64,000 nucleotides of DNA from Marsupella aquatica (Eukaryota; Plantae; Marchantiophyta): contig OZ316892.1 of assembly GCA_973895155.1 (NCBI GenBank), positions 4,095,223 through 4,159,222 on the forward strand, written 5' to 3'. The notes under the pieces were generated by a model that was given only the letters and a program-made list of their open reading frames with translations, was not told the DNA's origin and did no database searches. A program made the position numbers and the translations under genes. Below, piece after piece: positions 19,461-60,055 of this stretch (the first letter of the stretch is position 1; each line of letters starts with the position of its first letter).

Positions 19461-19569
19461 AATGTAAAAGGACCATCATCTGAATTTTGATATGGACGGC
19501 GCGTCCTCCGATTTTCAGGTGTCCAGGCAGTTTTCCTTCGTCGCAGTCAGTCGGAGGATCTTGTCTGGT

Positions 19570-21535
19570 CTTGCGATTTCTTCAACATTCGGTGTTGAGA
19601 CAGCTTCTTCTGAATCGTCGTCGGGATCTAGTGAGGTTCGCGCGTTTCTTCAACCACTCAGTCAGTCGGAGGATCGTCTTGCGATTTCTTCAACATTCGG
19701 TGTTGAGACAGTCTTCTGCTGAATCGTCGTCGGGATTTAGTGAGGTTTGCGCGTTTCTTCAACCACTGCGTCGAGACAGCCTTTTTTCAATGGTCGTCGG
19801 GTTTATGTAAGGTTCGCGCGTTTTGTACAACCTTCGGTGTTGAGACAGTCTTCTTCTGAATCGTCGTCGGGATTTAGTGAGGTTCGCGCGTTTCCTCAAC
19901 CACTGCGTCGAGACAGCCTTTTTTCAATGGTCGTCGGGTTTATGTAAGGTTCGCGCGTTTTGTACAACCTTCGGTGTTGAGACAGGTTCTTCTGAATCGT
20001 CGTCGGGATTTAGTGAGGTTCGCGCGTTTCTTCAACCACTGCGTCGAGACAGCCTTTTTTCAATGGTCGTCGGGTTCATGTAAGGTTCGCGCGTTTTGTA
20101 CAACCTTCGGTGTTGAGACAGGTTCTTCTGAATCGTCGTGGGGATTTAGTGAGGTTCGCGCGTTTCTTCAACCACTGCGTCGAGACAGCCTTTTTTCAAT
20201 GGTCGTCGGGTTTATGTAAGGTTCGCGCGTTTTGTACGACCTTCGGTGTTGAGGCAGTCTCCTTCTAAATCTTCGTCGGGATTTAGTGAGGTTCGCGCGT
20301 TTTTTCAACCACTGTCGAGACAGCTTTTTCTCAATGGTCGTCGGGATTATGTGAGGTTCGCGCGTTTCTACAACCTTCGGTGTTGAGACAGCTCCTTCTG
20401 AATCGTCGTCGGGATTAAGTGAGGTGCGCGCGTTTCTTCAACCACTGTGTCGAGACGGCTTTCTCTCAATGGACGTCGGGATTATGTGAGGTTCGCGCGT
20501 TTCTTCAACTTTCGATGTCTAGACAGCTTTTTCTCCATCGTCGTTGGGATTAAGTGAGGTTCGCGCGTTTCTACTTCCTTCGGTGTTGAGACAGCCTCTT
20601 CTGAACCGTCGTCGGGATTAAGTGAGGTTCGCGCGTTTCTTCAACCTTCGGTGTCTAGACAGCTTTTTCTCAATGGTCGTCGGGATTATGTGAGGTTCGC
20701 GCGTTTCTACAACCTTCGGTGTCGAAACAGCTTTTTCTCAATTGTCGTCGGGTTTAAGTGAGGTTTGTGCGATTCTTCAACCTTCGGTGTCGAGACAGCT
20801 TCTTCTGAATCGTCGTCGGGATTAAGTGAGGTTCGCGCGTTTCTTCGACCTTAGGTGTCGAGACAGCTTTCTCTCAACCGTCGTCATTTTGGGATTAGTC
20901 ATTGGGGTTTAAGTGAGGTTTGCGCGTTTCTTCAACCTTTGCTGTCGAGACAGTCTTTCCTCAACCGCCGTCGTCGGGATCTAAGAGGTGCGGGCGTTTC
21001 TCTTACAGTCGGGTCGAGAGTGGATCGAGACAGTGCTTTAACTTTAGTGTCGAGAGTCGAGATAGTGCTCCATCGTTATCGGGGTCGAATTGAGAGGTCG
21101 GGGGGTTTCTCCAACCTCTGCTGTGGAGAGGTTAGACTCCTGCTCCATCACTATCGGGACCTAATCGGGAGTTTCGGGCATTGCACCACCCTTTGGTGTC
21201 GACAGTCGAGATATTGCTCCATCGTTATCGGGAGCTAATTGAGAGGCTCTGGCATTTCTCCAACATTTGGTGTTGAGAGTCGAGACAGTGGTCCATCGTT
21301 ATCGAAAGCTAAATGAGAGCTTCCGGCGTTTCTCAAACCTTTGGGGCCGAGAGTCAAACAGTGCTCCTTTGTTATCGCGTATAATTTAGAGATTCGGGCA
21401 TTGCTCCAACCTTTGGTTTCGAGAGTAGAGACTTCGAGAGTTGAGACAGTACTCTATAGTTCTCGTAATCTAATTGAGAGGTTCGGGCATTGCTCTAACC
21501 TTTGGTGTTGAGAGTCGAGACAGTGGTCCATCGAC
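19570..21535. repeat. CpG-rich satellite: ~68-bp monomers (136-137-bp dimeric higher-order repeat at ~19690-20400) grading into ~72-bp diverged units
   Basis: tagtgaggtt landmarks at 19741, 19878, 20014, 20150, 20287. Monomer gtgaggttcgcgcgtttcttcaacc...gagacagc...cgtcgtcgggat. Diverged units run from ~20990 to 21535. Confidence 0.92.
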
Positions 21536-24664: not shown

Positions 24665-25008
24665 TGTTAGATATTGCTCTAGTCTTGTGACTCATGAGCT
24701 AACCACAGTTAGTCTAACTCGGGTTAGGACTTAGCTAATGTTAGTGGTAGTGTTGTTGTGTATATAGCCAGGGCTGATGCCAGACCCTGGTGGAACTTAG
24801 GCTCATTGTTACGGAGCTAGTTGAGAGATAGGGAGAGCTTGTGCTGTGGATGTTTGGTATGGCCGGTCGGCCTAGAGTGCAGTAAAGCTCTTGTGTGTTC
24901 CCGTGGACGTAGCCTCATGTGGAGGTGAACCACGTATCTCTCTGTGTTGACTATTGTGCGTTGGATGGTTCATGGGCTTGCCGTTACGAATGTCGTCTAT
25001 GCTCAACA
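24665..25008 (+). repeat. Copia 5' LTR (344 bp)
   Basis: TGTTAGATATTGCTC...GCTCAACA; about 11 substitutions and one 4-bp indel versus the 3' LTR (manual count). Confidence 0.97.
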
Positions 25009-26506: not shown

Positions 26507-27644
26507 ATGAGTGACTCGGAGGATATTGGAAGAATTGGCGTCGGTGGAGCTTCAGGATCGCGATGGTCAGACGGAGAGTCTGAGGAAGAGCTGCTACCGT
26601 TTGAGGAGGAACTAGTGACACCGGTAAGATCATCGGTGCGGCGTGCAATGGAGGAAGCTGTACTACTACCAGAGCTGTTGGTAGTGGGGAAGAAGAGGAA
26701 GATGGCTAGATTTGGAGGAGTGAAGTTTGAGGTGGAGAAGTATGATGGTCATACTGATTACTTGCTCTGGGAGAAGCAAGTGAAGGGTGTTCTACGTGCC
26801 ATGGGCTTAGCTCATCTGCTTTCTTTGCGAGAGCAGTATGATGAAGAGGAGGAGATTTCTGTGAGATAGTGGAGACAGGAGCAGGTGATTGCTGTCAACG
26901 CAGTGATGCTATATCTCAAGCCGCACATCATCAAATAACTAGATGATTATGCGGATTGCACGTCACTATTCAAGGCTCTAAGAGAGAAGTACTACCGGAA
27001 AGATGTGTCAGACCGGCTGTACAAGAAGTCTCTCTTGACGAGCCTCAGGCTCAAGGAAAGGAGCAAGATGCAAGATCACTTGGATGAGTTTGACAGTCTA
27101 GCGGTGGATCTGTCAAACCTGGGAAAAGGAGTTGAAGATGAGGATAAGGCCTTGCTTTTGCTAAGCTCCTTACCGCCGTCATATCAGGGCTTGAAATAGG
27201 TGCTCTTGTACAGAGATCTAAAGTCCATTTTGTATAATGAGGTGGTGAGCTCTTTACTGTCTGATGATGCTTAGAAGAAGCTGGGTCAATCACAGACAGC
27301 ATCTTCTTCTGGCAGTGCACTGAATGTGAACCGTGGGAGAGCAGCGCAACGCTCAAATGGACAGAACAGGTGTAGATCTACATCACGGGGGAGATCTAAA
27401 TCCAGAGGAAAATCACAAGAGAGAAAGCCTCTTGCATGTTGGAATTGTGGCAAGCCTGGCCACATGAAAAGGGATTGTCGAGTAAAGGTCCCTACTGCAT
27501 CTGCTAACGCGGCATCGAGCTTGCATGAGGTAGATTTACTCGATGATGATGACATATTGTGATGCCAAGGTTATCCTCTCAACGTAGTGTCAAATCCAGG
27601 TAGTGATGACTGGATTCTAGATAGTGCATGTAGTTTTCACATTT
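26507..27644 (+). pseudogene. Copia gag and start of protease
   Basis: KFEVEKYDGHTDYLLW; EDEDKALLLLSSLPPSY; zinc knuckle CWNCGKPGHMKRDC; protease WILDSACSFHI cut by the insertion; in-frame stops. Confidence 0.92.
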
Positions 27645-28240
27645 ATCACTATATTCATTAAAACTGAAATTATAAATGATATAGGGAAATTTGGCGATTT
27701 AAAAACATAGTTTTAGGCATGAAAATTGTAAGTTTGGAAGATGAAAAATGAAAATTCAAGCATCATTAAATGTAAAATTGAGGACAAAAAATGAAATTTT
27801 GGGAAAATAAAATATTAAATTGGATGATATTAAAAAATATTTGGGTGATAAAAGTGTTCATTTGGTTGGAAAATAGATAGAATCTAGTAATAACATATAA
27901 GCTTGGATAGCATCTATATTCAAAACATTTAGCTTGAGTAAGATATCTAACTAAGCACCAATACAATGGAATGACTATATTGTCTAGACAAAGTTAACTA
28001 GGATGATATCCAACCTACTAGACTAGAAGGAATGAAATGACATCATTTTCTAGAATTAAAATATACTAAGACAAATAAAATAATAATTATAAGAAAGTCC
28101 ATTCAATAACTTTGAGAGATCATAGAGTATTAATTTGATTGTCTTGTTATCTCACTTTAGACAAACGCATGGAAATCAACTCGACCCTCTTAATCACAAG
28201 TCATTTGAGTGGAGACTTGTAACCTACGAGTTCTATCAAT

Positions 28241-31200
28241 CTACTCATCAATTATACCTTCCATGTAAATTTTGAGAGTTTTCAAAACATTCTTAGAAAT
28301 TGTCAAACCTCTATCCATAATATTTTGTTCTTTAGCACCTGACTTAAACCCATACATTGCAGAATTTGCAAACTGCCAACTTTGAGTAACATTGTCAAAC
28401 CCAGGATCCAGCTCCCAAGTCTTAGTGGTTTGAAAGTAACGTTCATATCGAACATCATCCTTTGCATCATGCTTACCATGTTTAGGCCTCCACCATTGTA
28501 CTTGGAACATAGGAGCATTCCTCTTAGGAATGCTCTCAATAGACATTGAAGAAGACCCTTCAATATGTTGCAAATCTGTTGAGGGAACCTCATGGTTTGG
28601 ATCCACACCACCCAAAGCTTGAACCTTTGCCATTTTCCTGTTCCCATTCATCCTCTGGACGTAAAAATACAAAGTGACCTTCTTGAATATCTTGTAGAGG
28701 AATCCACCTTGCAGGTTCTTGCTCTTGTCGTGCACCAACAAAGGGTGCAGCTTGATCTTCCATCTCTTCCATGTACTCATTTTGAAGGTCCATCATCTCT
28801 GGATTTTGATAAGGTTCACTTGACGGCTGAGATGTCCCCAAAATCATCTTGTAACCTGTGCCATGGTTAGTCTTTGGCCAAAAATCAGTTGTCAATGGCA
28901 ATTGTCTTTCCCCCTCCCCTTCTATTGTAAGTTCCTCGGACAGTGCTTGCACAAGATTCTTCCAATATTTGACCAGAGGAAATCTCTCTCGATATGCTGC
29001 AGAGGTCTCATCCTTACAACTTTTCTTCAAGAAATCAATATAGCGATTAAGGAATGGGATGATTTCTCCAGCCTTCTTTTGTACATCCCCAGATATAGGT
29101 TTTGCAAATGGTTGGCCTTCCGGTAAAATGAGCGCATTTGTGATGGGATTAGTTCTCCAAATGGACCTCCCCATTGCCGGAAGCCAAGGTTGCTTGACAT
29201 GTGCTTTATATTGATACACTGGCACATTATCCCTCATGGAGAAAAGAAATGCCACTGGTTTTGAGTGACCTTGTATCTCTTTCACCTGGAAAGTTTTCAA
29301 ATACTCCTTCTAAGATGCAACCTCTTGAATCAATCGTGGTACAGGATGAATGCTTTCACACTCCCAAACCTCAGCCATCAACCCCAAGAGGGTAGCAACC
29401 TCTTTGTATCTGACTTGTTTGGATACTTGAGAAAATAATGCATCCACGTCTTCATGGGTGTGGCCAACCATGAGGAATGACATTTGCACAGTTTCAAACA
29501 CCCCCTGCTAACAAGCTCAATGCAAAATGCCATCACATATTGATTTTTGTTATCTTTCCCTGAATTGTCCATCTGCAACGTTAGGTGCCTTGGTAAGGGC
29601 TTGAAAGAGCCCCTAGTAGTCTCAGGATCATCCTTAGAACCAACATCCACTGTGCTTGACTTTTTAGTCTCCTGACCATCTTCAATGCCTTGAAATCGAA
29701 CAATTGAAATATTTTTGGGTTCCAAGTAACCGGCCAGAAATGCTTCAAAGTCTAGAAGGGACTGAAATATTGGCCTAGTTGCATTCCAATTCAATCCTTC
29801 AAGAAGGTCTCCAATTTTGTCTCCTGTGTAATCTTCCAAATCTTAGAGGCATTTGGCCAAAGATGTCACGGTAAAGTCTGCATCTCCAGGCCAAAGTCCA
29901 GTCAAACTAAAATGTGCATACACTCCAGGATCTCTTCCATGGGTTAACATCCCAGTAAGAGCAATAGGCAAAGGCTGACCACTACCAGAGAGGGATTTTG
30001 GAGTGGGGACCAACTTGGGGATCCAAGTCTTGGCTTGATCCATCTTATCATGAATAATGCAAAGATAGTTTTGAGGATCCTTCTTTGCAAGAACCCTATG
30101 AGCATAGTAAACATATCTTCTTGACATTTGTTCACGAAGATGTCGCGCTCTTTTCTCTTCAATCTCTGCACGCTCTTTTTTTCTCTTCTCCCGCATCAAT
30201 TGATCTTTGAACTCAGTGCAAAACGTGCACTTAGCAAATGCACTTCCCTTGTGAAAGTCAAAATTATCAAATGAGTTTTTCCAGATGTTGTACATAGTAA
30301 CTTCAGTAACCTTAGCAAACCCATCTAATTCCATCTTGGTAAACACCTCTTGGAAAATCTCCTTCTTAGTAAAACAAGATGGGAGCCGATATTCAATAGT
30401 GTCAGTGCCGTTGGACCCACCATAGGGAAGATGTGGCATTGGTTCCCCATTTTGGATTAAAATGGACTCCAACAAGGCGCGAGCGTGCAAAGTGCTTGAT
30501 CGTGTCTTCCGTTGTGGAAACCAATTGTGCAACCAGCTTCGTATTGATTTTTGTAGTCATAGTACTTTGTTGTACTGAACCCATGCATTTTAATAAATGC
30601 ATCTTTACAAACCACACGTCCCTTTAGAACAAAAAATCCCTTTCTCTTGACTTGCTCCTCTCTACACCCAAAGAGACTAAAGATGTGACTTGTTTTGTTG
30701 TCACTTGACATTCCATGGTATTCCCTCCTCATTGCCTCTAAGTCCTCCCTGCGCATGTTCAAGCAACACTTCAGCTTGCAACAACCTTCTCTTTGGATGG
30801 AATCAATGGACTCCTCGGTAATTTTCAAAAGTGCCCTCGACTCCAAATGCCTTTTCTTCTTCTCCTCAAGATCAACTTTTGTCCTCCTCATGAAATTGTA
30901 TGGTTTTTTTGTAGGTTTACCATCACCATCTGAATCCGGATCGCCCTTAGTTTGACCCGACTCCATCCACTTCTCTGAAACTTCCTCAAGGATATCCCCA
31001 AGAAACCTTTGAGACAAAATCAATAGAAGGGATTTGATTTCCCACCTCACCAAGCCAGGGGTACCAACACGGATATTTGGAAATAATCCAGGTTCATTGA
31101 TATTCACAACAACAACACCAACATGATCTGCACCAAGAAGTTCATCGTCAATGGCACCTGTTTCAAATGGGACCGTGATAACACCTGTTGCAACCTTTCG

Positions 31201-31929
31201 ACAATGAGAAGCGTCATACAAATCAACCTCCTCCGCCATCCAGTTGGAACGTAGTGTAAAATCTTTTAATGGAAGATCATTGAAAATATTTGAACTACCA
31301 AACATGCCAAAATCTCGTAGAGTGCCCTTTCTAGAAACATGCGCAACATCCCAGATAACTTAGGTATGCAAGGCCTCTTCTATTGTATCAGCTCCAAGGT
31401 GCGAGTATGGCAATTTTTGATTTCCCTTAACAATATCAGATATTCTTATACTGATGCAACCAACCCCGAGTCTTTCAGTATGACAAATATCCATCGGATT
31501 TGTCTTGAAAATGACTCCATTTGCAACCAACTGATCAAAAATGAACATCTGAACTTCATCTCCTTCCTTGAACACGTCCTCTTCAACCCTTGCATCAATT
31601 TTGGATTTATCATTTCCAACATCTCCAGCCAAAGAGAAATCATCGACATTGATTCTTCGACGCTGAGTTGATGACCTCAAGTATGCCAATGCACAATCCC
31701 AAATCACGCAGGAGTCAATTGCCTCAGCCAATGTAGAAAATTTGGGTGAAGGAAATGGAAGTTGATGCGATCCATCAAAACACTTTTTGATCAATACCCC
31801 AATTTGATTATCCCCTAGATAAATGTTATGTATAGTATCCTGGGGGTCAATCTTTTGAACTATCCCAATTGCCATTTCAAATCCATCGATCACCAATGAC
31901 ACTTCATCCCCTCATGTAAAATTGATCAT
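28241..31929 (-). pseudogene. Sola-type DDD transposase (DUF7869-like) with three N-terminal Tnp1/EnSpm-like domains; frameshifted
   Basis: Consecutive ORF fragments: CCKLKCC..GRVVCKDAF; FAKCTFC; catalytic IIHDKMDQAK, LTLQMDNSGKDNKN, FLMVGHTHEDVDALFS. N-terminal repeats AIGIV..LG..IGV..VIWD, VANGVI..LG..VIWD, VATGVI..LG..VGV. Confidence 0.82.
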
Positions 31930-32061
31930 GATAGCAGACTATCTGTATTCAAATAAAGTTAGAAATTGTTAAGTTCCCCATGTTACAATCATGTTTCAAA
32001 ATCTGGACTCTCCTCCAAAAAATATTGTAAAATCACTCAAAACCCTAAACACATTCAAGTT

Positions 32062-32427
32062 GGGTCGAACTTATTCCGACCCTCTGACAACAATATGTCT
32101 TAAAACGATTGAATTGGCTAAACATTTACAAGTCGGGTCGGAATTATTTCGACCCTCCTCCAACAATGTCTTAAAATGATTGAATTGACTAAACATTTAC
32201 AAGTCGGGTTGGAATTATTTCGGCCCTCCTCCAACAATATGTCTTAAAATGATTGAATTTACTAAACATTGACAAGTTGGGTCAGAATTATTTCAACCCT
32301 ACTCCAACTATTAAGTTGAAATTATGTCAAAACTATTCGTGAAACTATCTTGCTTATGCTTTTATATACCAGATTAAAATGCTAGTTAAGATGACATAGT
32401 CAAGTCGACACGAAATAATTCCGACCC
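32062..32427. repeat. Array of 21-bp palindromes GGGTCGGAATTATTTCGACCC (~72-bp spacing) upstream of the transposase
   Basis: Copies at 32062, 32135, 32206, 32279 and an inverted partial copy at 32407. Confidence 0.85.
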
Positions 32428-34183
32428 ACTTCTAGAAACTATGTTAGTAATCACACAAAGGGGTACAGTAAGTTCTACACATGCTAGAGTGTGGATAAAA
32501 GTCTAGAAATGAGTAAAGTATATGATCTAGAACCTAATGTGTAAATCTTAATCTAGGTTTGGCTTAAAGGAATTGAATTAGATGCAGTTGAGCTACTACT
32601 TCTAAGATAAATAAATAAAATCACTAACTTGCTCTGCAATATATCTCTACCCACCCTTGTACAAGCTAAATGGGTACCTAGGATGCCAACATTGTAACTC
32701 TTAGCACCACAGTGCTCACCAGTGCCCTTACCAAACCTTGCATTCAACCATGCGGACCTAAACAAGGCACTCGGACAGAGGAGAGTCAGTGACCGTACCA
32801 ATCACTGTCTAAATGACAATGAACCAAAAAATGGATTGTGGGAGGTCTATACTTAGTTTGAGAGGCAAAAAACCCACACATTACCCAGCACACGAGTGGA
32901 CACCAACAGATTGGGCACGGGTGGATCAGGCACGCACCCAGCACACAAGTAGACATTGGATAGGGTGTCAGCCAATCACTCACGAGTGATAGGTGAGTTG
33001 CAAGCACACACCGCTGACAGCTTGGAAGTTTAAAATTGGTAGGTGAGTCGCGAGTGGTCGTGAGTGGTCACGCCATCACAGGTGACTCACGAGCACATGC
33101 AGCAAGGAGGATCTCCATCATTGGCGTGCATTGATGCCTCCGTATCCTCTCGGATCCTTGCCTCCTCAGACTCCTCACTCGCAGGGGGTATAGGAAGGCA
33201 GGCCTTGCGCTTGAGGTCTCACTTCCTTGCCTCCCTCTTGCCTCCTCTCTTTCCTCCTCTCCGGGCTCCTCTCTCGTCTCCTCACTCCTTGCCTCCCTCT
33301 TGTCTCGCTCTTGGTGTGAGATAAGGATGTTTATAAAAGAAGGGTTAACTAACCATAAATTTTAGAATTTTTACGTTTAAGATCTTAAATAATGCTGAAG
33401 AGGGACCTGAAGACTACTTTGAAGTGTTATGAGACTTTCAAGCCCATCTGAGGTCAACCCGGATTGATATTAGAGAAGGAGGATCGACCCGGAACTTTTT
33501 GTTATAAGCCTGGAATGAGATAAAAATCTTATACCGAGACTCTACTCAACAACAGCTGTCCATTGCCAAAGTTTTTAAAACCATAAGTCAAACACAGGCA
33601 CGACCACAGTCAAATCCGGATATAAGGAAGGAGAGTCGATCCGGCCTCTCACACCTCTCAAAGCCGAACTTAGTAAGTTTTGAGCTCCCGAGTGCATTAG
33701 GCTGTTTAAGCAATAGAGTGAGGAGGCTCTACCCTTTTGGTAGAGGATCTTGGGTCCGGATTATAGGACCAATCTTGCATTGCATGATGAGAGCCTGGAT
33801 ATGAGGGTACTGACTGATTCGTTGTGAGGGGAATGCCTACTCCACCGCTGGAAGTGAAGGCAGGAATTTTGAGATCCTGATCGTGGATACATCGGTTGTG
33901 AGAAGGGCGGCCAGGTCGACCCGGACATCACCATTGCAGGCCCGATTGAGTCCAGATTTTCCCCACGTTAGATGACCCTGCAGTGTGGTTGACGAAAACT
34001 TGATGCAATTCTTCCGAAACGATTTTCAGTTGATCAGAAACGCTGTGGCCAGGTCAACCCGGACATTTCTACCAGTGGTCGACATCGAAGAGATTGAATA
34101 GTCTGAAGTCGCAACATTGTAGAGCTTGCCGTAGAGGAGGCAGAACAGTTACCAAAAATCAATTTTCTGCTTCCAGAAATCCT

Positions 34184-35865
34184 ATGGAGCAAGGGGCGGA
34201 TCCAGCCGGAATGTCTACTTCTCGCGTCTCTAAGGGGCATTCAACCTCAACATCACCTGCACCTACTCCGGTTAAAGCCCCTGTGAGACGATCGAAGAGA
34301 AAGGAGGTCCCTATTGCCATGAAAATTCTGAGGCCAACTATTCCGGACAGTGAAGCTGAGAAGGTTAAACTGAGGGAGTCTTTGCTCAGGATGGGCTGTG
34401 AGTCTCTGATGGAGCTACCTTGGAGTTATCAAAGCGAAGATATGATCAGAGAGATCCGATCTAAGGAGTATCGGGCTGAGTTTAAGGATACCTCCAGAGT
34501 CCATCACCTGAGCGATGGACTCAGATGATGATTGCAGGAGCTTTTGTATTGGAAGATGAAGGAGAAGGTCCAGTGGGGAGAGCTGTCAATCTAATCCTTC
34601 CTTACTTCAAAGGAGCCATCAACAGTAAGGACGGGTTCAATGTTTCTAAGTGTTTGGATCCTGATCTGAGACGAGTCTTCAGCTTTCTGCTACCCCTGCT
34701 GTACCCTGAGAAGCCAAGAAGAGTTACTGTTGGAGTTGGCTCTACCATTGTTGTTGCTTACAAGGGAGAAAGAAAAGTCAACTGGGCTAAGCTTATCTTT
34801 GATTTGATAAGGAAGTTGGTACAGAACCTATCCAACAAGAGTCCTACTCCCCTCTCCTGCTACCTGGTACATCTATATAGCTTTGAAGGAGTTTTGTTCA
34901 GAGAGGAGAAGAAATTACTATTGGCCAAGTACAACTTCATCAAGTATGGAGAGACAGATCCAGATATCACCCAGGCCACCTCTAATGACAGTGAGGATGA
35001 GGAGCCAGCAAAGAAAAATCCTCGAAAGACCCGGTCTGCTGCCCGGAACCTCGATCCGGACTTTTCCGACCCGGCCTTCGTCGACCCGACTGAATTTCCG
35101 GATGCACCCGGCCATGCCTCCCTAGACACCCTAGCTGATTTCCAGATCATCTCAGACACATTCCAGAAGGTGAAGAGGAAGACCACTGTAATGGAGAAGG
35201 CCATCACTGACATTTCTCAGAAGTTAGGAGTGAAACCAGGGCAGATTCTTGAGAAGATCTCCACCATGAGTGATGCCACAGATAAGAGGAAGTTGGAGAA
35301 GGAGAATGAGTTCCTCAAGAAGAAGGTATCTGAACTCAAACAGCAGTTGGAAAGGAGTAAGAAGAAGAATGAGCTTGAGCATACTCTCCAACTCAGTATC
35401 ACTCAATCTTTGGATCTGATTGAGCCTTTGACTAAGATAGCTTCTCTGGATCTTCTTAAGGCCCAAATTTATGATGAGTATTTGGCCAAGAACACCACAC
35501 CCATCCTTTTCTCCAAGATTAACCATTTAGTGGTAGATGTGAGTACCAAGGTGGATGATGCACTTACAGGCCTCTCAAAGACCTGTGAAACCTTAACGGA
35601 GATGAGTGACTTGACTACTGAGGAGCTATTAGCTGATACTGAGATTCCTCCCTTTACTACCAGATCTTTCTCTCCTAGTCCTCATGAAGGAGTCTATTCC
35701 ACTGGCCCCTCATCACCCCTCAACCCTCCTGGTTTCCCCACTCCCAGTACACACTTCCACTCCCATTCTTACACCTATTCTCATGACCCAAGTGCCCATC
35801 AGGAGAACATGGATATTGACCCGTCCATCCCTTTTACCACTGGCCAGCAAGGAGTTTTCCTTTGA
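34184..35865 (+). pseudogene. Gypsy accessory (non-gag/pol) coiled-coil ORF, one frameshift near 34500
   Basis: MGCESLMELPW..EDMIRE..SKDGFNVSKCLDPDLRRVFSFLLPLLYPEKPRRVTVGVGSTIV..RKVNWAKLI..PTPLSCYLVHLY, then a coiled coil; resembles accessory ORFs of bryophyte Gypsy elements as recalled. Confidence 0.6.
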
Positions 35866-37068
35866 CCAGAACCCCTTGCCATGGCTAACCCTGAGGAGGT
35901 TCCTTCCCAAAAGCTAGGACCAGAATAGAGTTATATTTAGAGAGTTAGAGCCACATTAGTTTAGACTTAGAAATATCTATATAGATTAGTATATGACTAA
36001 GTAGACTCCAATATTTTGTTGATGTATCCATTGGAGACTCTACTCCATTTTTGACTAGGATAGTTCGCTTTTATTTACATATTTATTTAGACTTGGGTTT
36101 TGAAGAGGCATGTCTTTTCATAATCTCCACTTTTAGTACAAAAGGAGGAGAACCCAAAGTCAACAGGGAGAGAAAACATACATTTTGATTTCCTCATTGC
36201 CTTTGAAGGAATCTATGTCTTTTCTTCCCTTCCTTTTTACCATGGTTGAGTAAAAGGAAGAAGTTTAGCAACCCTTGAGTTGTTGTGAAGTGTTCAATGA
36301 ATGCTAGAGTGTGCCTTAATGATATTGAAAGATCAATGAGATTTGTGATCAATACATTTGGAAGATTCACCAAAGAGGAAATTGACATTTGCACAAAACC
36401 CAAACAAGCAATCTTAAGGATTGTAGGAGAAGTAAACCAATTCGAGTATCCTAGTACCGTCTTAAGCAAGACCAGAAAAGTGTCCCGAGTTGATTTACAT
36501 TGTTGTCTTCTAAATTCAATAGATGGAGAAGAGTTGCTACAAAAAATCAAAAAGCATAGAAAATGTTGATTTCTGAATCTTAAATTAAGCCATAATCCTT
36601 ATTGAAGGAGTGGTGATGGTCAGAAATTCAATTCCCTTGCACTTTGAAAACTCCTATCTACTCTCTCTCTAGTTTCAATTTTTGTTAATTCTAGTCTTTA
36701 TTATTGCACTGTGAATCCTAAGGATTACCCACTTGAGTTTGTGGTTAAACACTTATGTTAAGGAGATCACTAGAAATCTCTCCAACCTAAGAATGTTGGT
36801 GTAAACTTCTCAAATTGTGTTAATTCAGTCTTTTTGATTTTATCCACTCCTAACCGGAACGAAATCGAGTTGTTAAGGAGTAAATAGTCATTTATCTCTT
36901 TATCACCTTGCTACATACTACACCCATTTTGGCGCCGCTGCCGGGGAGTAACTGAGATCGGGAGACCTGCCGCGACAGTGGATGTCAAAAGGAGATCAAC
37001 AAAAACAGTCAAGAAGTAACGGCAAAAAGGTACTTGATTAAGGAAAAGAGGCTGGAACCTCCTAAGTT

Positions 37069-37956
37069 ATGGTGAGGAGAAGTCGACCTCAAAAGAGGGA
37101 GAGAGCCCAAATCAAGTCAAGAGAGAACCAAACCCAAAATATCAAAGATGCTACTACACATTCAAGAGCAACAATTGTGAGAAGTAGTGGAGGAAGTTAC
37201 TTTTGGGGAGGAGAATTGATTAAAGTTGATTCATGGGACACGAATGTTTTTCTTGATTGTTTGTTGATTTTTAGAAGATTTGTAAATGGTAGATTCGAAT
37301 TGGTGGAAGCCACTTATGATGAAAAATTTGACAAGGATTGTATTCCTGATTTATTGAGGGACCACCACATTGAAGAGGAAATCCTAGACATAGAAATTGA
37401 AGAGGAATTAAAGGAAGCATTGGCAACATTGAAAGGAGATCAATATTGGAGAAACAAGCTTGACAATGTACTAGTGAAGTTCTATGAGAATTCAAATGTA
37501 CTTCTAAACGAAGAGAAGCCTGTTGTGACTTTGGAAAGGCAAGAGTTGATAGGAACATTGGACCATTATAATAGAAACGGTTGGATTCTACTCAAATGGA
37601 AGGATTGGAGGGCAGGAAAACCCTGTTTTCAATGGAGTTCCCATTTGCCAGAAATGTTTGATTTGACCAATGTTTTAGTATTGAAGAGACTTTGGATTGA
37701 TGATGGTGAGTATAAGTTATTACCCATCAAGGAGGAGAATGATTTTGAATTTCTGTTAAAGAAGCACAAGCACCATACTATTTGGGCGTCTGAAACAGAG
37801 GAAATCAAAATCAAGGAGACGTTAGCCGTATTACATGAGATTAGTGAACCTTGGGTAGATACACTTGATTTCCTAGAAAATCTATTGAATGGATATAGGA
37901 CGTTAGTAGAGCAAGTGGTGTTGAATAATGGATTCTTCCAAGTAGATTTAAATTGA
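37069..37956 (+). CDS. Uninterrupted 295-aa ORF of unknown function just downstream of the PBS (possible extra 5' ORF of the retroelement)
   Basis: ATG-initiated, no stops, globular composition; followed by an 88-aa ORF at 37966-38232; no motif recognised. Confidence 0.5.
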   Translation: MVRRSRPQKRERAQIKSRENQTQNIKDATTHSRATIVRSSGGSYFWGGELIKVDSWDTNVFLDCLLIFRRFVNGRFELVEATYDEKFDKDCIPDLLRDHHIEEEILDIEIEEELKEALATLKGDQYWRNKLDNVLVKFYENSNVLLNEEKPVVTLERQELIGTLDHYNRNGWILLKWKDWRAGKPCFQWSSHLPEMFDLTNVLVLKRLWIDDGEYKLLPIKEENDFEFLLKKHKHHTIWASETEEIKIKETLAVLHEISEPWVDTLDFLENLLNGYRTLVEQVVLNNGFFQVDLN

Positions 37957-38514
37957 TACCCCAAAATGCCGAGACCCCAACCAAGATCACTTGGTAGTTT
38001 TAGAGTTCAAAACATTAGGGATTCTTATTTGCGAACGAGAGTACTCAGTCTAAGAGGTAGACGAGGGATTCACTGGTTATCAATCACGTGGTGGGAAGGA
38101 GATCTCCTACATTTAGTAATTCTCAAACTGAACGGAAGGATCAGTGGAGAAAGATACATTGTTATTTCAATTTCAGAATTGGCCAGAGACCTCATGACCA
38201 GGAGGAATGATAGGAGAAGAGATCAGCAGTAAGAAGATTGTCTTTTTGGAAGAGGAAAAAGGGAGAAGAAGAGACCCGGACCAATGTCCAACCCGGACCC
38301 GGACATTTGTCCAGGTAGGCCATTGTCCGACCCGGATCAGAAGCCGGGTCTGAACCGTCGTACCCAAAAGGCACCCGGAAACTCAAGAGTAGGAGGTAAA
38401 CGTCGTGACCTAGGGAACCTCAGGGTGGACCCTCGGCAAGAAAAAGAGGAGTATGTCCAGGAATCTCATGAGGATCGATTCATTCAATTATTCCAATCAG
38501 ATTTATGAGTTGGT

Positions 38515-41500
38515 ATGTCAAACAAAGGAAAGTCAAATTGGAGAAAGAAGAGTAACGTTGACTCTGAGGACGAATCATCAGGAGTGACATCAGTGCAGCC
38601 ACGACAATTATTTCCTGATTCACCACCTGTTGGGATCGTTTCTGATCGACTAACGGAACTCCAAGATCGATACGGAAAAGGGAGTATTGAAAACCCTACC
38701 TCCAGTCGTCCAACCTACATTAATTTAAGATCTGGACCTAAATTGGTACCACCAACCCAGATTGGTAGGGGATATATACCCACGGGAAGAGGATGTCAAA
38801 AGTCTACAAGTTTAGACAGATTGAAGACCACATGTCAATGTTAAAAATATGATGTTGACCATTTTGTTTTCAATGTTTCTTACCAGAAAAAAATCTTGAG
38901 AAGCCGGAGTTAAATATTATGGATGAGGATATCAAGGACTTTGTTTTCCCTGACCAAGATACTCCAGGATTTAGATGGGCACTAGAAGTTGGGGTGTCGG
39001 CGAAAGGCAGTCTCTTGATTTGTTTCAAGGGCCTCACAAGTCAATTGAATGACCGCAAGACAATTGTTACTCTAGGTCTAGTCGTCCTTGTGAACACGGA
39101 CAACAACCGCAATGCAACAATTATTGTTGAGTCCAATGAGAAATCTCAGTGGATGAGACTTCTGGTGCCAATAAAACTCTACTCGACTTTACTGAATGTT
39201 GAGTGGATGGCTTGATTGGAGATAAGCGTAGCTGATATGGGATTCTTCCCAGATGGAGTAACAATTGATCAGATGTTTGAGAAGACGCATTCTCAAATAA
39301 GTGGAGTTGACCTAGTGTTTGGATTTCTCTACGTAAAGAAGCACATGCATGACAATGCGGACAGTGTGGACCCTCCGTCTACTTGGATAGTTGAAAGGAT
39401 GATTGAGAAGGCACATTTTTCATACGAGCAAGCAATCGACAAGAGTTTCATTTTTTGTCCAGAGTTTCAAGAGGCCGCATGCCGGACGTGGATTTCAGAG
39501 ATGAAGAAAAAAGAAGCAAAGCATAAGGCAAAGGAGAGAAAGAAGACAATGGAAAGAAGCGCGCAATCAAAGACAGAGAAGAAATGAAAGCTTCGAGAGC
39601 CGGTTGTTCAACAAGAGAAACAATATGGGAGTTCACGCCGTAAGAAGATGGCTTAAAAAAATGAAGATGATGAGGGCCCCCAAAAAAAGCAGACAAAGAA
39701 GGCAAAGGTTGCAAAATCAAAACCAATGTCAGCGTCGACTTCAAACTTTGTCTTGCATCCAGAGGATGATATGTGTCCGACAGAAGGACCCAAAGAAGAT
39801 GATGTGCTCAAAGGCCAAGAGGTTTTGCGTAATATTGAGCAGTATTATACTTTTGGCATCCGCAAAGTTTTTGATATTCCTGTAAAAAGTATTATTCCGC
39901 CATCGGCCATTTTTGTATATCGAATGTTCAATCTTTTGCATGCAATGGAGATATCAAAGTCTATGATGAAAAACCCTGGATAGGAACCATAAGTTGCTGA
40001 TTTGATTCTGTATCACGAGAGCACTAAATAGTTGCTTCTTATGACAACACACCTCAAGATAGGAAAGAGTTTTTGATTGGTGTGAAGAAGCATGAGATCC
40101 AATTCCTTGCCATCAGTGGCCAGCATTCTGCAAGAGCTGCCCAATGGATCCAAGGGGGGGCCGAGACTGACGCCAAGCTGACAGATCTTGCCAACAAACT
40201 AAAGTATAGGAAAGCAAGGATCCTATCTGACCTCACTCCGAAGACAATTTTGGTTGAGCATTCAAGTTTATCGAATGCTGTCAATGATACTATGCAATTT
40301 AAGTCTTGTTTTTTAGAGACTATTGTTCATGCACGAAGGCAGTTTGAGGAGTGCGGGAAACCGCCGCGTCCAAGGATTGGGACCAATCAAAATACAGACA
40401 GGAAAAACTATCAGGTACATGTTGGAGCAACACAAACTATTCTTGATCCGCTTTGTTTAAAGATTGTCAGTGGTAGAGGTTTGCCTGGCCCCAAGGGCGA
40501 GACTGCCTTGTCTTGTTTTCCTTGGTTAGAAGATTAAAGCAAATGTTTGCCTCGCCCTCAGGGCAAGGTAACCTAGACTAGTCTCTCTAAGAATAATTCC
40601 CTAGTTCCATTTCAGTCAATTGCGGTTAGATGTAGAGGTTCGCCATGCCCTTGGGGCGAGGCGGCTTAGCCTGTTTCAAACATAGGTATAAATTTTCTAA
40701 TATATGCATTGTACCCTGAAACTAATGTCAAGTCCATTGGATATGCAGGATTGGTTTGCCCTTGCAAAGGTTACAATGGGGAAGTCAAGCCTAAAGAGCA
40801 TTTATTGGTTACTTTTTGCCGAAGATGAGCTCTTTGAATTATGGCGGAATGTGTGTGCAAAATGGTTGAGTGGGAAGCTCCAAGATGGGGCTGGTGGGTA
40901 TGGAGGGCCAAGACCCCCAAAATTGATCACTCCCGGTACCTTCGATGCTTTGAAGGAGAGATTAGTAGCAAACAGATAATTGAGATCTTGAAGGACGTTG
41001 AAGAGGAGCGTGCCTTGCTGAAGAAGGATATCACCAACAAATCAGAGCTTGTCGCAATGGGAGACTTGGCCCTTACAATCAAGATAATGTCCAAATTGAG
41101 AACAGTCATTATTGGCTATTTCATGGAAAAGTATCGTGAGAAGTTTCCTGTTGGCACATCTTGGGAGTCTCTGGTGATATTGTTGCCTTCCTTGAAATCT
41201 GAGCTTGAGATGACAAAATTGAGGAGAGCAGCGGGTGAGGTTTACCTCAACAATTCATTGAAGAAGAATGTGGTCAAGGAGAGTTTCCCACAAAGTCGGA
41301 TGGTCAGACTAGATGGGGTGTATTGTAAAGAATTTGGTGGGATTGGTCGTTCTCGCACGGAGCCTTTCTTGACATTTTTTAGTGATAATTTGATGAAGAC
41401 GACCGTGCCGGAAATGCTACAAGAGCCTTCGCCTTTGTGTCCTCTTGCCATTGTTGACTTCAGTAGGCTCCGACAACATGTTTGGACCGATGCTGAAATT

Positions 41501-43027
41501 ATTGCATTACTACAATACATTGTGGATCTTCCAAGAAATCCAACAATTGTTGTTGTCATGACTGTGCATCCGGGGCCACTTGCTACAAACATTTTGAGTG
41601 CCCTTACGAAATTGCAACATGAAAAGGGAATGGACATCCACGTTGACTACGGGAGCTATCGACGGAGTGATACACCAGTTCCAGAGGGCTTACTTTTCAG
41701 TTGTGGTATGGAGGAGATAATCTTTGAAGGAATCACCACTGAGGAGAAATTTGATTGGAAGCAAGTGTTCAGGCCTGGATTTAATTGCCAATTTTCTTAC
41801 AATTCGGCGATCGACCCTAATTTCCAAGTGGAAGACAAGACGGAGAAGCGAGATAAGAATAAGAGTAAGACAAGTAAGGAGACAGAGACTGAGTCAACTT
41901 CGGCATTTCACATTGGAGATTTCTTACGAAAGGCTCCCATGTTTGAGATGGTGGGAAGTAGAGGTGGCTTTGTGAATATTCACGCTAAGCCAAAATGTAT
42001 ACTGCAGAGTATTATTGATTTTTTTTTGGCTGAAGGGGAGACTATACTTGACTTTTTCTCGGGAGGACAGGTTATGAAGGTGTCATTGTTGTGTTTCAGA
42101 GAATGCTTTGCGTATTCAGACACTGAGGATGAATATGATTTCACTCAGGCATATGGAAGGGTTCTCTGCGAGAAATTTCCTTCCATAATGAGTGACCGGA
42201 TGGGCGGTTCCAAATTTGGTAGAGCCCGTGATGGGGTTTCCAAGCATGTTGGCGCCAAAGAAGGCGTAGACCAGGGCGAAGATGAGATTGAGGAAGGAGA
42301 ATTGGGTCATGACACAGACGATAGGGTCACCCGAATTTTGGATGAACGTGGAACACAAGTGGTAGGTATTCCCTACTTTGGTGTGGGGTTGGCCGATTTT
42401 GTGGGTCAACCTGAGGGCGACCCACCAAGAAATCCCTTTGCCGGTGTAGAGAATTGGATGCACCAGGCGGACCCAAATCTTACATCCTCCACATCAGACG
42501 CACATTGGAAGGCAACCGCAGATGATCGAGGCAATATTGACGCAGTAGAATTGGGAGAAATGTCAGACATTGCGCTTGCTAAGGAGGATGATCGTCAAGT
42601 ACCTGAGATCGCTGCAAATGAAGAAGAGAAGGCAGGTGCTTCAAATCCTCCCCTGTCTCCTCTATATTGCTCATCAGAGACTAAATTGGTTTTTACAAGT
42701 GCTTCTACAGGAAGCCCCGTAGTATTATCATTTTCACAAAATTCTGGATCCGAGATCGACAGGACTGGATATATGAAAACAGTCGGTCCTGCAACTCATT
42801 TTATATGGAGAAATGGACCAAAGGTTGGAATGATAGAATCACTAGACGATGCTCCAAAGATAATGGCAAAATCAGATTACAAAAAACTGAACTTGAGACT
42901 GAGCCCAGTTTTTGCACCCCCATCCTTTGAAGAGCAACTTCCCAGTGGTATCAATTCCGAGATACAGAGTGTTCTAGGTGATCAAACAATAGATGAATTT
43001 GGGCATTTTAGCATTGGAAATTATTAG
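38515..43027 (+). pseudogene. Transposon cargo gene: ParB/Srx-like domain fused to a beta-class N6-adenine/N4-cytosine DNA-methyltransferase-like domain
   Basis: GT-AG introns ~38765-38886 and 40415-40748 join the ORF pieces in frame. ParB-like YRMFNLLHAMEISKSM..FLAISGQHSARAA (~39900-40290). MTase-like PLAIVDFSR (motif IV position, ~41450) and VNIHAKPKCILQSIIDFFLAEGETILDFFSGG..RECFAYSDTEDEY (motifs X-I-II, 41970-42140). Several stops and frameshifts. Confidence 0.72.
40483..40662. repeat. Three 21-bp near-palindromes (consensus GCCTCGCCC-N3-GGGCGAGGC) in the cargo-gene intron
   Basis: Copies at 40483, 40549, 40642. Confidence 0.75.
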
Positions 43028-43371
43028 CCCTTTCTTTGGTTCTTGGTATTTTAATGACAATCTAAGCTTTGTCTTTGTAATAATATACTTTTTTACAGAC
43101 CAAAGTTCCATCGTAGAATCTCCTTCCTCAAAGGATTTTGTTGGCATTCCCTCGAAAAGCGTTGCTGTGGACGAAGGGTTTGACCCAGGTATACTTTGGA
43201 TCTAAAAAATGACAAGTGAATGTAATTAATGTTTTTCTAGGAGGGTCGCCCCAGGGTCGTTCCTCTCTACTTCAAATGCTATAACAAAGTTTGTTTGATT
43301 TCAAATTTTGAGAGTTTTCCTCCGTAGTAATTGTTTAAACTTTGAGTCGCATTGACTAAAGGCTTATTTTA

Positions 43372-44383
43372 ATGTTTCCAGAATTCACTCCAATACTACA
43401 CTCTCCGATCCGGCAAAAGCTCTTGGTTCTTGACCTTAACAAGATTTGTTGGGATTGCATTAAGACCAGAAGCTCAGGACCATGGCAAAATCAGACAAGT
43501 TTACGTGGTGTGCACTGGGGGAGACGTGGAGGGTTTAATTTCATGTATGTGGAGCGCCCATACCTCCACGAATTTCTATATGCAGCTTTCATGGTTTTTG
43601 ACGTCGCAATTTGGACCTGTGCAAGGAGGCCAAAAACAATGGAGTTAATGGAGTTGATTTTCACTGAGGAGGAGCGACAGAAGTTCAAGTTTGTCTTTAC
43701 TCAAGAAGATACCTTTGATAGTTGCATCCAAAGGCCAGATATAACAGATGGGAAGGCCAATTTACTTCTGAATAATTTGCAAACCATTTGGGACCGTTTT
43801 CCAGAAAAATATGACGCTTCTAATACAGTTCTTATTGATGATTCTCCATTGAAGGCATTTTTGAATTATGACGTGAATGGACACTTTTTTGCCCGAGATA
43901 TTATGGCCGTATCTTTGCAAATTGAGAAAGGCTTACTGCGTTCAACATTATATCACTGTCAACAATCCAAAGTGGTCTGTTTTCAATTTATTAACAAGCA
44001 AGGAGGATCATGCTGCCATCTATGCTCTTTTGGAACAGAAGTGGGCAGATTGTCGTTGTATCCATAAGGAGTTTGGAACCATCTTGGATGTGACTCCTGA
44101 AGAGATTCCTTGGGACGGAAAGAACGAGGTGCAGCATTACCCACCACTGGAGACGTGGACCACGGATGAGATCGAAGAAACTGCAAACGCAATACTTGGA
44201 GACAACTATTCTGGTCCTCAAAGACAAAATAGAAGGCATTTTATTTGGAAAGTTCTCAGAACTAGGGATCTCACCAATAAGTTTAAGAACCACCATGCGA
44301 GAGATACTTGCAACCGTGACATCCGCTATGATAAATCAGGAAGCAAACTTTCTTGTTCAAATGAGTTTTGTCTTGATCATTAG
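43372..44383 (+). pseudogene. Transposon cargo: FCP1/NIF-family HAD phosphatase-like domain (one frameshift ~43875); separate gene or last exon of the cargo gene
   Basis: KLLVLDLNKIC; ERPYLHEFL..FDVAIWTCA; NLQTIWDRFP..YDASNTVLIDDSPLKAFLN; lies inside the right TIR. Confidence 0.8.
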
Positions 44384-44851
44384 GAGATAGGGTTGCTCTA
44401 GTGCCTACCCTGAATTGTATATTCATATTATGTCAAAGGATATGTTTTGAACATGTAGGATAAAGTAAATAATTATGATATGCTTAGTGTGAGGCTCTCT
44501 CACTGGACTGGACAATTTAATAATTATATAGTGGGTCAATCTCATTTTGACCCTTGATTTATGACCATATATATTTTTTAATTTATAGATGGTCTGAGTG
44601 GTATTGGCCTCTGATTTTTGGACTAAATCAAATTTACTCTAATTTTTAAATTAATTAGAATATATGATTTAAGTTATTATTAAACATTTGGGTGAAAAAA
44701 AACAAAATTTTGGGCGTTCAAAAGTGTATATTTGGGCTGAAAAAAATTAACTTTTGGGAATGCTTTAATAGAAATTTGGCTTGAAAAAAAAACTTTAGGG
44801 TTCATCTTATGGACTTTTAAAAGTACAATTTTAATGAAAATAGTGATATTT

Positions 44852-48209: not shown

Positions 48210-48557
48210 TGTTAGATATTGCTCTAGTCTTGTGACTCATGAGCTAACCACAGTTAGTCTAACTCGGGTTAGGACTTAGCTAATGTTAGCGATAGTGTTG
48301 TGGTGTATATAACCAGGGCTGATGCCAGACCCTGGTGGAACTTACTAAGGCTCATTGTTACGGAGCTAGTTGAGAGATAGGGAGAGCTTGTGCTGTGGAT
48401 GCTTGGTATGGCCGGTCGGCCTAGAGTGCAATAAAGCTCTTGTGTCTTCCCGTGGATGTAGCCTCATGTGGAGATGAATCACGTATCTCTCTGTGTCGAC
48501 TATTGTGCGTTGGATGGTTCATGGGCTTGCCGTTACGAATGTCGTCTATGCTCAACA
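48210..48557 (+). repeat. Copia 3' LTR (348 bp)
   Basis: Direct repeat of 24665-25008, preceded by the PPT and followed by TSD CGAAC. Confidence 0.97.
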
Positions 48558-58111: not shown

Positions 58112-58846
58112 CTACAAACTTCCTAGTGCCTTAGAAATCTCGGAGGTAACGTCTTTCGGAGATTTCTCCGCATGAAGATGGGCCACTATTCCCTTCCGTT
58201 CATAATAGTCAACCACAGGGCTCGTTTGCTGATGAAAGGCCTCCAGCCTGCTCTTGAGAACGTCCGCATTATCGTCCTTCCTCTGGATCAGCTTCTCACC
58301 GGTCACGTCATCGATCCCGGCCTTCTTGGGTGGCGCGAACTTTGTGTGGTATGATCGTCCACTGGCAGGGTGAATCCAACGACCTGTAATGCGCTCTTCG
58401 AGCACAGAATCTGCAATCTCGAAATCCAAAACCTTATCTATCTTGGTGCCCTTTTTCGCAAGCATCTCATCCAACTTCTGAGCTTGGACCACCGTGCGAG
58501 GAAACCCATCCAGAATGAACCCTTTCGAGCACGACGGACGCTTCAGGGCTTCGTCAATGATGCCAACGACGAGATCGTCACTCACGAGCTCTCCCTTCTC
58601 CATGGCCTTCTTCGCCACCACTCCAAGAGGAGTTTGTGCCGCCACCGCGGCCCTCAGCATGTCTCCAGTGGCAAGATGACAGAGGCAGTAATCTTCTTTG
58701 ATCACGGGAGATTGAGTCCCTTTTCCGCACCCGGGTGGCCCGATGAGGATCAATCGCTTCTCAGACTTTGGAGCGCATCGCAATCGCCTCAACACCTCGG
58801 TCATGAGGCTATCAATGGGCACGTCCTCCAAATTTGGCGTTGCCAT
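58112..58846 (-). CDS. ADK: Adenylate kinase (AK2/plant ADK3-4 type), 244 aa, no coding introns
   Basis: P-loop [10 protein letters not shown]; HLATGDMLR; [13 protein letters not shown]; [10 protein letters not shown]; [19 protein letters not shown]; QRKDDN. Confidence 0.97.
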
Positions 58847-60055
58847 CTTCCCAAGTCTCGATCGATCGAAAGAGAAGAGCTAATCAAGACGCGTCCGAGG
58901 AACAAATCTACTGACTTCCCAGAATCCCTGTCCCCGTTTCCTCGTTTACTCAATGTCAAGACGATCCAGCAAATCCGGCGGCTATGCAACAATGGCAGCT
59001 GTCTTGAAGCTCGAGTCGGCCCTACAAAACCGGCAAAAAACGGCTGCACCCGAGACCAATTTAAAATCTATAGGGTATTTAAAGTGCTCATCACGCAGTA
59101 ACCCAGAAACGATCCGCATGACAATCTCCAGGTGCCACTTATTGCAGCCAACTCCCAAGTCTGAGGTGGTCATTGCATCCAAAGATTTACCTCTTAGGGT
59201 AGCAACACAAAACTAAACACAAACACATAGAAAATCCGCGGAAGAAAGATTCTTTCTCGTCTTTACCTAGCCCTCCAGCATGGTTATAAAGAAATAAAAA
59301 GTCTTTCAAGATATTTCCTTCTCTTACAGTAGTCGATCACTAAATCACTTCGCCAACAAAAAGAATCAACAAATGCTAATCGTCAGTCTCCGGCCGCGCA
59401 GATGTCCCCTTACAACGAGACTCCCCGCTCTGTCTAAGACTAAACTCGAGACCATGGATTACTTCTCCACATCGCCGAACATCCGTCAAATGGACGGGGG
59501 CACACAAAGACCTAATAGGGGCGAACTACTAGTCTCTCACATCTCACCAAACTCGAAGATCTCCAAAAGACTGCTTCAAACAGATGAGACCACAAGCGTG
59601 TTATCAGCTCGATTGATCGATCGCCAGAGAGAGCTAGAGGGAGATCTTCGGGACCATACCTAATCACACATCGAAGGAGCGAGAGAGCAACCCGCAGCTG
59701 CCGATAGATCACTCCCTTCCGTTCTTTCACTCGCGCGACCGACCAGCAGCACCTCCCTCCATCATTCAAGCATTTTGGTGGATCGATCTCCTCGAGTCCT
59801 CGTCGCCTCGATCGCTGGTCAGTAGAATAGCAGAATCCAACAATTGGAAAGCTGTGACACCTACTCGCAACCTCCGAAGAAATGGCAGCCCCTGTGATGT
59901 TGGCGTTGTCACAAAATCGTCGTGGAAACCTTCTTAGAGTCTTTACTTCACCAACTTCAGTCAAATGTGCTCACACGATTTCTCTGAGCTCGGATCCGAT
60001 TTCTGCTGTCACGCGGAGTAATCGAAAATTTTCTCGTCTCCCCTAAAACAAGAAT

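Follow-up and report, generated by a model that had tools for sequence, protein, structure and literature searches.

Amino-methyltransferases of bacterial type are rare in land plants, the N4-cytosine (N4C) enzymes of Marchantia sperm being the only case found in a literature search; according to passages of PMC4738411, land plants have few N6-adenine (N6A) methyltransferases, and its main-text passages name no bryophyte transposon family. The eukaryotic beta-class enzymes described, rotifer N4CMT and liverwort MpDN4MT1a/b, are active products of host genes with SPPY or TSPPY motifs (passages of PMC10406627 and bioRxiv 2021.02.12.428880), and the bdelloid enzyme is stated in passages of PMC8885841 to have no eukaryotic homologues. 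Amino-methyltransferase folds inactivated by motif loss are known from METTL14/Kar4 and from the methyltransferase domain of DIRS1, which is also borne on a transposon, and methyltransferases linked to ParB have passed from prokaryotes to eukaryotes, as with the phage ParB-terminase methyltransferases and their algal and fungal derivatives (Iyer, Zhang and Aravind 2016; passages of PMC4738411). Here, a 64,000-nt stretch of the liverwort Marsupella aquatica (contig OZ316892.1, positions 4,095,223 to 4,159,222 of the forward strand; the window) was analysed, in which a Sola-like DNA transposon carries an accessory gene with a beta-class amino-methyltransferase fold that is predicted to be catalytically dead and belongs to a large family sharing the same altered motifs.

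The open reading frame (ORF) at 40838-43027 on the forward strand contains all the motifs quoted in the original prediction, which had proposed an amino-methyltransferase fold in beta-class order with DFSR in place of the catalytic DPPY; motif IV does precede motif I, all in one frame. An AlphaFold model of the methyltransferase region, built from 92 family sequences with canonical enzymes not among these, reached a predicted local distance difference test (pLDDT) score of 90.1 and bore out the fold, being Rossmann-like with the catalytic region N-terminal to the region that binds S-adenosylmethionine (SAM). CcrM was its best Foldseek match (E 1.7e-8) and led a fold search (Z 17.3, root-mean-square deviation (rmsd) 3.4, 215 residues), followed by M.BceJIV, M.RsrI, M.MboIIA, M.PvuII and rotifer N4CMT at Z 14-16, and the top 11 rows of a wide fold search were all beta-class methyltransferases (Z 14.2-17.3). 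The Pfam match of this copy to N6_N4_Mtase (PF01555) is weak (E 0.03-0.11; 12.9-14.7 bits, below the gathering score of 26.7 bits), and matching relatives score 15-22 bits, with a precomputed PF01555 tag on three relatives. All six members of alignment A2 matched N6_N4_Mtase at E<=1 (best 3.4e-6), a six-sequence family profile found M.RsrI (E 5.8e-6), and the ESM Atlas returned N6_N4_Mtase clusters at 0.94.

In a joint sequence alignment DFSR falls one by one on the columns of DPPY, DPPF, DIPH and DIPY, which places it at motif IV as proposed; the residue pairing is that of the sequence alignment, the fold searches yielding ranges only. The SAM-binding half, originally called clear, does carry its motifs, but motif I has a one-residue deletion and motif II lacks its acidic residue. 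The His of H-x-T-Q-K-P pairs with the Asn of V-N-I-H-A-K-P and not with its His.

These features are not confined to this copy. Word-index searches returned 13 relatives with 26-61% identity, and a profile search of a 50%-identity library returned 165 clusters at E<=0.001, 150 of which are among the matches listed. For motif tallies, 160 stored proteins were realigned, 159 of which aligned, and each motif was counted over the rows covering it; five proteins with a canonical-type motif I (P0133, P0142, P0148, P0151 and P0158) and the near-duplicate P0008 were excluded. Motif IV begins with Asp in 61 of 66 rows and continues with Phe or Leu in 61 of 66, Pro standing at position 2 or 3 in none of the 66; positions 3 and 4 vary freely, position 4 being Arg in 36 rows, His in 10, Trp in 1 and Tyr or Phe in none. 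Motif I is one residue shorter than F-x-G-S-G, with adjacent Gly-Gly in 78 of the 79 rows that have both Gly columns (the sole insertion is a Pro), and is never followed by Thr (0/81). The canonical motif II column holds no Asp or Glu (0/72), whereas motif X keeps Asn or His in 71 and Lys in 75 of 77 rows, its Thr-Gln not being retained. The check on motif IV that had been suggested thus gave a consensus of D-[FL]-x-[RH], not one of DPPY type, and the same non-canonical motifs were seen in relatives down to about 20% identity. Named members come from the liverworts Calypogeia fissa (two) and Riccia sorocarpa (six records). When the pattern of alignment A2 was scanned more widely, none of 43 candidate stretches in viral contigs and none of 78 in prokaryote genomes were relatives, and one of 384 in metagenomes was, a 1.8-kb locus without flanks (L001) with DFAR and DFFSGG.

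In rotifer N4CMT, Pro109, Ser283, Thr285 and Asp301 contact SAM and Tyr110 stacks on the base (passages of PMC10406627). Mapped onto that enzyme by motif, without superposition, the positions lost in the family are Pro109, Tyr110, Ser283, Thr285 and Asp301, and those kept are His253, Phe280 and the first residue of motif IV. Because the catalytic motif IV and the SAM-binding residues are both altered, a dead enzyme, one of several options originally offered, is now favoured: judged from its sequence, the domain is likely to be incapable of methylating the amino groups of adenine or cytosine.

A sister family with intact motifs was also found. P0151, P0167 and P0171 (Ginkgo gene models and one other record) have DIPH or DIPY, F/C-x-G-S/T-G-S/T-T and a Glu or Asp at motif II, and the sister sequences exceed the Pfam cut-off; the Ginkgo models and further relatives have the N-terminal domain in common with the degenerate family. 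The sister proteins collected were P0151, P0164-P0167 (Ginkgo gene models), P0168-P0171, P0148, P0133 and P0158, which have a ParB/Srx-like domain and, where the methyltransferase part is present, DIPH/DIPY, FSGSGTT and the motif II Glu/Asp. They are predicted to be active bacterial-type DNA amino-methyltransferases, present in several copies in a seed plant, and are possibly transposon-borne. A tree of 34 cores, which is unrooted, with a thin outgroup and long branches and with MpDN4MT1 and N4CMT absent, separated the 28 degenerate cores by a 100/99 branch from three sister and three bacterial cores. A single motif loss is the simplest reading, the direction from intact to degenerate being inferred because the bacterial state is intact, and the 13 relatives, 165 clusters and 28-core clade suggest that selection has maintained the fold. 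A Ginkgo sister protein matched 94 phage records, confined to the methyltransferase part at about 25-27% identity, which points to no donor.

The accessory gene was ordered by tblastn as a ParB/Srx-like domain, a helical domain, the methyltransferase-like domain, a linker with a conserved segment and, past two more introns, probably a NIF/FCP1-like domain encoded by a later exon (Table 1); in the Riccia sorocarpa gene model P0049 the NIF-like domain is fused to the degenerate methyltransferase. This particular copy is a pseudogene, interrupted ahead of the methyltransferase domain by five in-frame stops and two frameshifts. Since the ParB-like region of this copy is disrupted, that of the homologue P0162 was modelled. 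The model of P0162 residues 55-300 (pLDDT 84.8) gave PadC, SerK, KorB, pNOB8 ParB, SbnI, Srx and Atu1540 as the top seven matches of a wide fold search, with Z a modest 5.6-8.1, and Noc/ParB as the best Foldseek match (E 5e-3); a ParB/Srx fold is indicated by the agreement of these rows, the scores being modest. Neither Pfam nor PHROGs names a ParB-like domain in the relatives, PHROGs had no match for the methyltransferase or ParB-like piece of this copy, and the ESM Atlas returned nothing usable for the latter. No confident fold match was obtained for the helical domain, searched within the larger model (best Z 5.2, rmsd 7.8).

Both neighbouring domains look degenerate by sequence as well. 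The nucleotide-binding position of the ParB-like domain reads SGQHS or GGSHS in alignment A5, unlike the canonical GxxR, and the NIF-like domain has LVLDLNK at 43423-43443, its DLNK, seen in this copy only, being unlike the DxDx(T/V) of canonical FCP1/NIF phosphatases of the HAD family. Over the broken stretches of the gene, two high-depth contigs of run X1 each exceed the window by one base and show a single gap, which would fit other copies free of the frameshifts. At 43880-43881, where the NIF-like reading shifts frame, contigs of runs X1, X2 and X3 carry 36 extra bases, the difference being either a deletion in this copy or a shortening of its intron. A search for RNA records containing 39400-44400 turned up none.

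The gene lies in a transposon whose terminal inverted repeats (TIRs) are the longest of 570 inverted pairs between 27400 and 45100, with arms of 33 nt that are 85% complementary and 18 of the first 19 bases matching the right end. Contigs of all four runs join 27640 to 44848, with four letters shared at the joint. CACTA-type ends (CACTA at 27647, TAGTG at 44845) were considered and rejected: they give no 3-bp target-site duplication (TSD), whereas ends at 27645 and 44847 give ATTT/ATTT and match the contig breaks. The element also holds a broken transposase-like gene with DUF7869 matches (E 2.4e-10 on one piece and 0.032 on another), whose three Asp motifs are candidates for the catalytic DDD; no plasmid match was found for the transposase piece. 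In its 5' part (31360-31911 and 30457-31359, reverse strand), repeats weakly resemble Pfam Transposase_23 (TNP1/En/Spm; E 0.042). Upstream of this gene, five palindrome sites at 32062-32427, the last inverted, account for every match in the window with three or fewer mismatches. This count shows repetition, not function, because the pattern came from one copy, and the repeat is a speculative candidate for a cis site. Long contigs of run X1 had a depth of 509 over the transposase-like gene and of 474, 480 and 515 over the methyltransferase gene, and of only 36-50 at 37254-38773; the similar depths hint that both genes multiplied together, and the contrast hints at a nested insert within 33-38.8 kb. 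This probable insert (about 33000-38800) holds ORFs of 459 residues (34486-35865) and 296 residues (37066-37956) with no Pfam match above cut-off.

The element is termed Sola-like: its TSD, TIRs and size fit Sola, and its transposase motifs may resemble those of Sola1. Passages of PMC10741241 describe Sola elements with a 4-bp TSD and short TIRs (11-1124 bp), some above 15 kb and some present in moss, and passages of PMC3627910 an AT-rich AWWT-type TSD that includes ATTT. The transposase motifs here differ by eye from the Sola2 alignment (PMC3627910, Additional file 10), and such a cargo gene is not mentioned in the passages of PMC10741241 and PMC3627910 consulted.

Taken together, these data point, tentatively and with somewhat less than an even chance of being right throughout, to a dead pseudoenzyme kept as a DNA-binding accessory factor that favours expression of its element. 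An active ParB/Srx-methyltransferase fusion of bacterial or phage origin would have been captured by plant transposons, and one lineage would then have lost methyl transfer while selection retained the fold. The ParB/Srx-like, helical and degenerate methyltransferase modules may bind the element's own non-coding DNA, with the five palindromes as a candidate target, and binding would help the transposase gene to stay expressed despite host silencing. The model would be VANC of the Mutator-type VANDAL elements, likewise a transposon-encoded accessory protein, whose targets are often tandem repeats (PMC5735166); the analogy is functional, and no homology is claimed. The degenerate NIF/FCP1-like domain might serve as a protein-docking module. 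A broader proposal, which we think doubtful, gives the large Sola-like transposons of early land plants a ParB/Srx-methyltransferase cassette of prokaryotic origin that would exist in two forms. The active one (DIP[HY], Ginkgo) would write N6-methyladenine or N4-methylcytosine on the DNA of plants, and the dead one (D-F/L-x-R), which is widespread, would bind the element's palindromes and counter silencing by the host, as a bryophyte counterpart of VANC made from a restriction-modification enzyme.

Several points weigh against the reading as a dead DNA-binding factor. The palindromes are 6 kb away from the accessory gene, and internal repeats are common in transposons; linkage to the transposase is seen in this copy alone, and contig depth is not a copy number, both genes never standing on one contig. 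Within the domain, Asp or Glu stands one column past the motif II position in 27 of 72 rows, this copy included, the motif I Phe is kept in 75 of 81, conservation of the motif IV Asp, the motif X Lys and its Asn/His is strong, and MT-A70 enzymes bind SAM without FxGxG. Such residues would fit a pocket that still binds something, conceivably that of an active methyltransferase rebuilt to act on something else, be it RNA, a small molecule, a side chain of a protein or a DNA base that stacks against Arg or His. A rebuilt pocket is to be reckoned with because the Asp, the Lys and DFFSGG are strictly kept, these being, with the motif X Asn/His, the most conserved residues of the family; the +1 residue is specifically Asp in 24 of 72 rows, and the Pro of DPPY works through its main-chain carbonyl, which any residue offers (passages of PMC10406627). 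Set against this, the Ser, Thr and Asp/Glu contacts to SAM are all lost, 45 of 72 rows, among them entire subfamilies, lack the +1 acid, and motif IV positions 3 and 4 are unconstrained, so that we hold such an enzyme to be improbable.

A little more plausible, if still unlikely, is that the fold is dead but retained for some task unrelated to anti-silencing on DNA, such as that of a structural spacer or of a scaffold on which the transposase assembles or RNA polymerase II docks. All three recognisable domains look degenerate, and an FCP1-like domain suggests the polymerase carboxy-terminal domain, to which FCP1 function is linked. Inactive DIRS1 methyltransferase domains have in addition been proposed to bind transcripts or to mimic PCIF1 (passages of PMC4738411). 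However, the known ParB-type and beta-class methyltransferase folds are both DNA-associated, and palindromic repeats stand upstream of the transposase gene. Slightly less probable than a rebuilt enzyme is an inactive partner or competitor that, like METTL14, steers or blocks an active beta-class methyltransferase, either the DIP[HY] sister or an N4C enzyme of the host, for instance MpDN4MT1. Beta-class methyltransferases act as dimers with divided tasks (passages of PMC10406627), METTL14 is described as an inactive subunit (passages of PMC4738411), plants have the sister family with intact motifs, and N4C enzymes exist in Marchantia (passages of bioRxiv 2021.02.12.428880); yet no active partner gene was found in the element or among the window ORFs scanned, and no one genome among the named sequences has both forms, the sister ones coming from Ginkgo and the degenerate ones from liverworts. 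That a single copy of an active gene has simply decayed, a reading against which the original prediction leaned, would account for the stops and frameshifts upstream of the domain and is true of this copy's reading frame alone; as an origin of the motifs it is refuted because both D-[FL]-x-[RH] and F-x-G-G recur throughout the family, with DPPY-like motifs in 0 of 66 rows, and it is very improbable.

Inactive methyltransferase folds (METTL14, DIRS1) and active beta-class enzymes in Marchantia and rotifers are already known, and the family appears to be a real, undescribed variant of these kinds; a literature search by title and abstract opening found no paper on it or on such cargo. A homologue of the beta-class amino-methyltransferases, it shares with CcrM, M.RsrI, M.MboIIA and M.PvuII the fold (Z 15.4-17.3 over about 190-226 residues), the motif order IV...X-I-II, the motif IV Asp and the motif X Lys. 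Unlike them it has no Pro-Pro-aromatic, a motif I short by one and no motif II acid, and this copy falls short of the Pfam cut-off; it is joined to ParB/Srx-like and NIF-like domains, is spliced and is carried on a eukaryotic transposon. With three defining motifs thus altered, annotation as an N6A/N4C enzyme would be wrong. Rotifer N4CMT, also a eukaryotic beta-class fold (Z 14.3-15.1), ranks no higher than the bacterial enzymes, and MpDN4MT1a/b share their liverwort origin with the named family members. METTL14/Kar4 and DIRS1 belong to MT-A70 and PCIF1-like lineages, whereas the present fold is nearer the bacterial beta class (Z 17 versus 9.6 for METTL14 chains) and is carried by a TIR DNA transposon; the clades described by Iyer, Zhang and Aravind differ in their hosts (haptophytes, chlorophytes and chytrids) and in their FHA or ParB-HTH (helix-turn-helix) fusions (passages of PMC4738411). 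As transposon cargo, in this genome at least, this large family with a long-selected, probably dead branch and a predicted active sister offers a candidate for a factor that binds DNA or counters silencing outside flowering plants. The DIP[HY] branch is a candidate source of plant DNA methylation other than 5-methylcytosine, and the two branches form a natural series on the use of the beta-class fold without catalysis.

Table 1. Coordinates of the transposon, its genes and the motifs of the methyltransferase-like domain in the window.
Feature	Position	Strand	Basis
Beta-class amino-methyltransferase fold, predicted catalytically dead	41354..42187	+	AlphaFold, fold searches, alignments, family tallies
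LAIVDFSR	41444-41467	+	Same open frame
Motif IV position, DFSR replacing DPPY	41456..41467	+	Joint alignment and family tally
Motif X position, VNIHAKPK; Asn/His and Lys kept	41972..41995	+	Joint alignment and family tally
HAKPK	41981-41995	+	Same open frame
DFFSGG	42050-42067	+	Same open frame
Motif I position, DFFSGGQ; lacks one residue relative to DPFSGSGT, without Ser and Thr	42050..42070	+	Alignments and tally
RECFAY	42098-42115	+	Same open frame
Motif II position, YSDT; Ser in the column of the Asp/Glu of active enzymes	42113..42124	+	Alignments and tally
Predicted first exon of accessory gene; start codon guessed	38919..40414	+	tblastn with intact homologues P0162, P0055
ParB/Srx-like domain (ISGQHS 40112-40129)	about 39792-40414	+	Fold of homologous region of P0162
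In-frame stops in first exon	39213, 39585, 39654, 39981, 39990	+	This copy
Frameshift in first exon	near 40010-40030	+	This copy
Predicted GT-AG intron	40415..40748	+	Splice dinucleotides; P0003, P0055 read straight across
Helical domain ahead of methyltransferase fold	40749..41353	+	AlphaFold model residues 1-140 helical
Frameshift in helical domain	near 40940	+	Frame change versus P0002
Acidic low-complexity linker and small conserved C-terminal segment (AGAS...KLVF...DEFG)	42188..43027	+	Alignment A1
NIF/FCP1-like HAD domain, LVLDLNK for DxDxT	43382..44383	+	Pfam NIF E 1.3e-11 (above cut-off); splice signals
Sola-like TIR DNA transposon, 17,203 bp, within Copia long terminal repeat element	27645..44847	.	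TIR pair, TSD, contigs
Left TIR (ATCACTA...)	27645..27676	+	Longest of the inverted pairs
Right TIR (...TAGTGAT)	44816..44847	-	Pairs with left TIR
TSD ATTT	left 27641..27644, right 44848-44851	+	4-bp match on both flanks
Broken transposase-like gene (DUF7869)	28590..31911	-	Pfam; pieces in three frames
Candidate DDD motifs	HDKMDQ 30052-30035; MDNSGKDNKN near 29570; GHTHEDVD 29465-29442	-	In transposase-like gene
73-bp tandem repeat with five 21-bp imperfect palindromes, upstream of transposase-like gene	32045..32427	.	

The 17.2-kb transposon splits a Copia element (24665-48557) at its protease motif. The long terminal repeats of the latter (about 24665-25008 and 48210-48557) are identical at 332 of 343 positions (96-97%), with a 5-bp TSD (CGAAC), and internal stops are present. 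Elsewhere in the window, tandem repeat arrays with 68-bp and 74-75-bp units occupy 19555-21533, and broken ORFs at 6484-7737 on the forward strand resemble a Mutator-type transposase by eye (HDD...QKDLWH), with no Pfam match above cut-off. The one clear host-like gene seen is an adenylate kinase, possibly a retrocopy, whose coding sequence at 58112-58879 on the reverse strand is a single uninterrupted frame of 53% GC with an observed/expected CpG ratio of 0.94, which is not depleted, versus 0.29-0.59 in the repeats.

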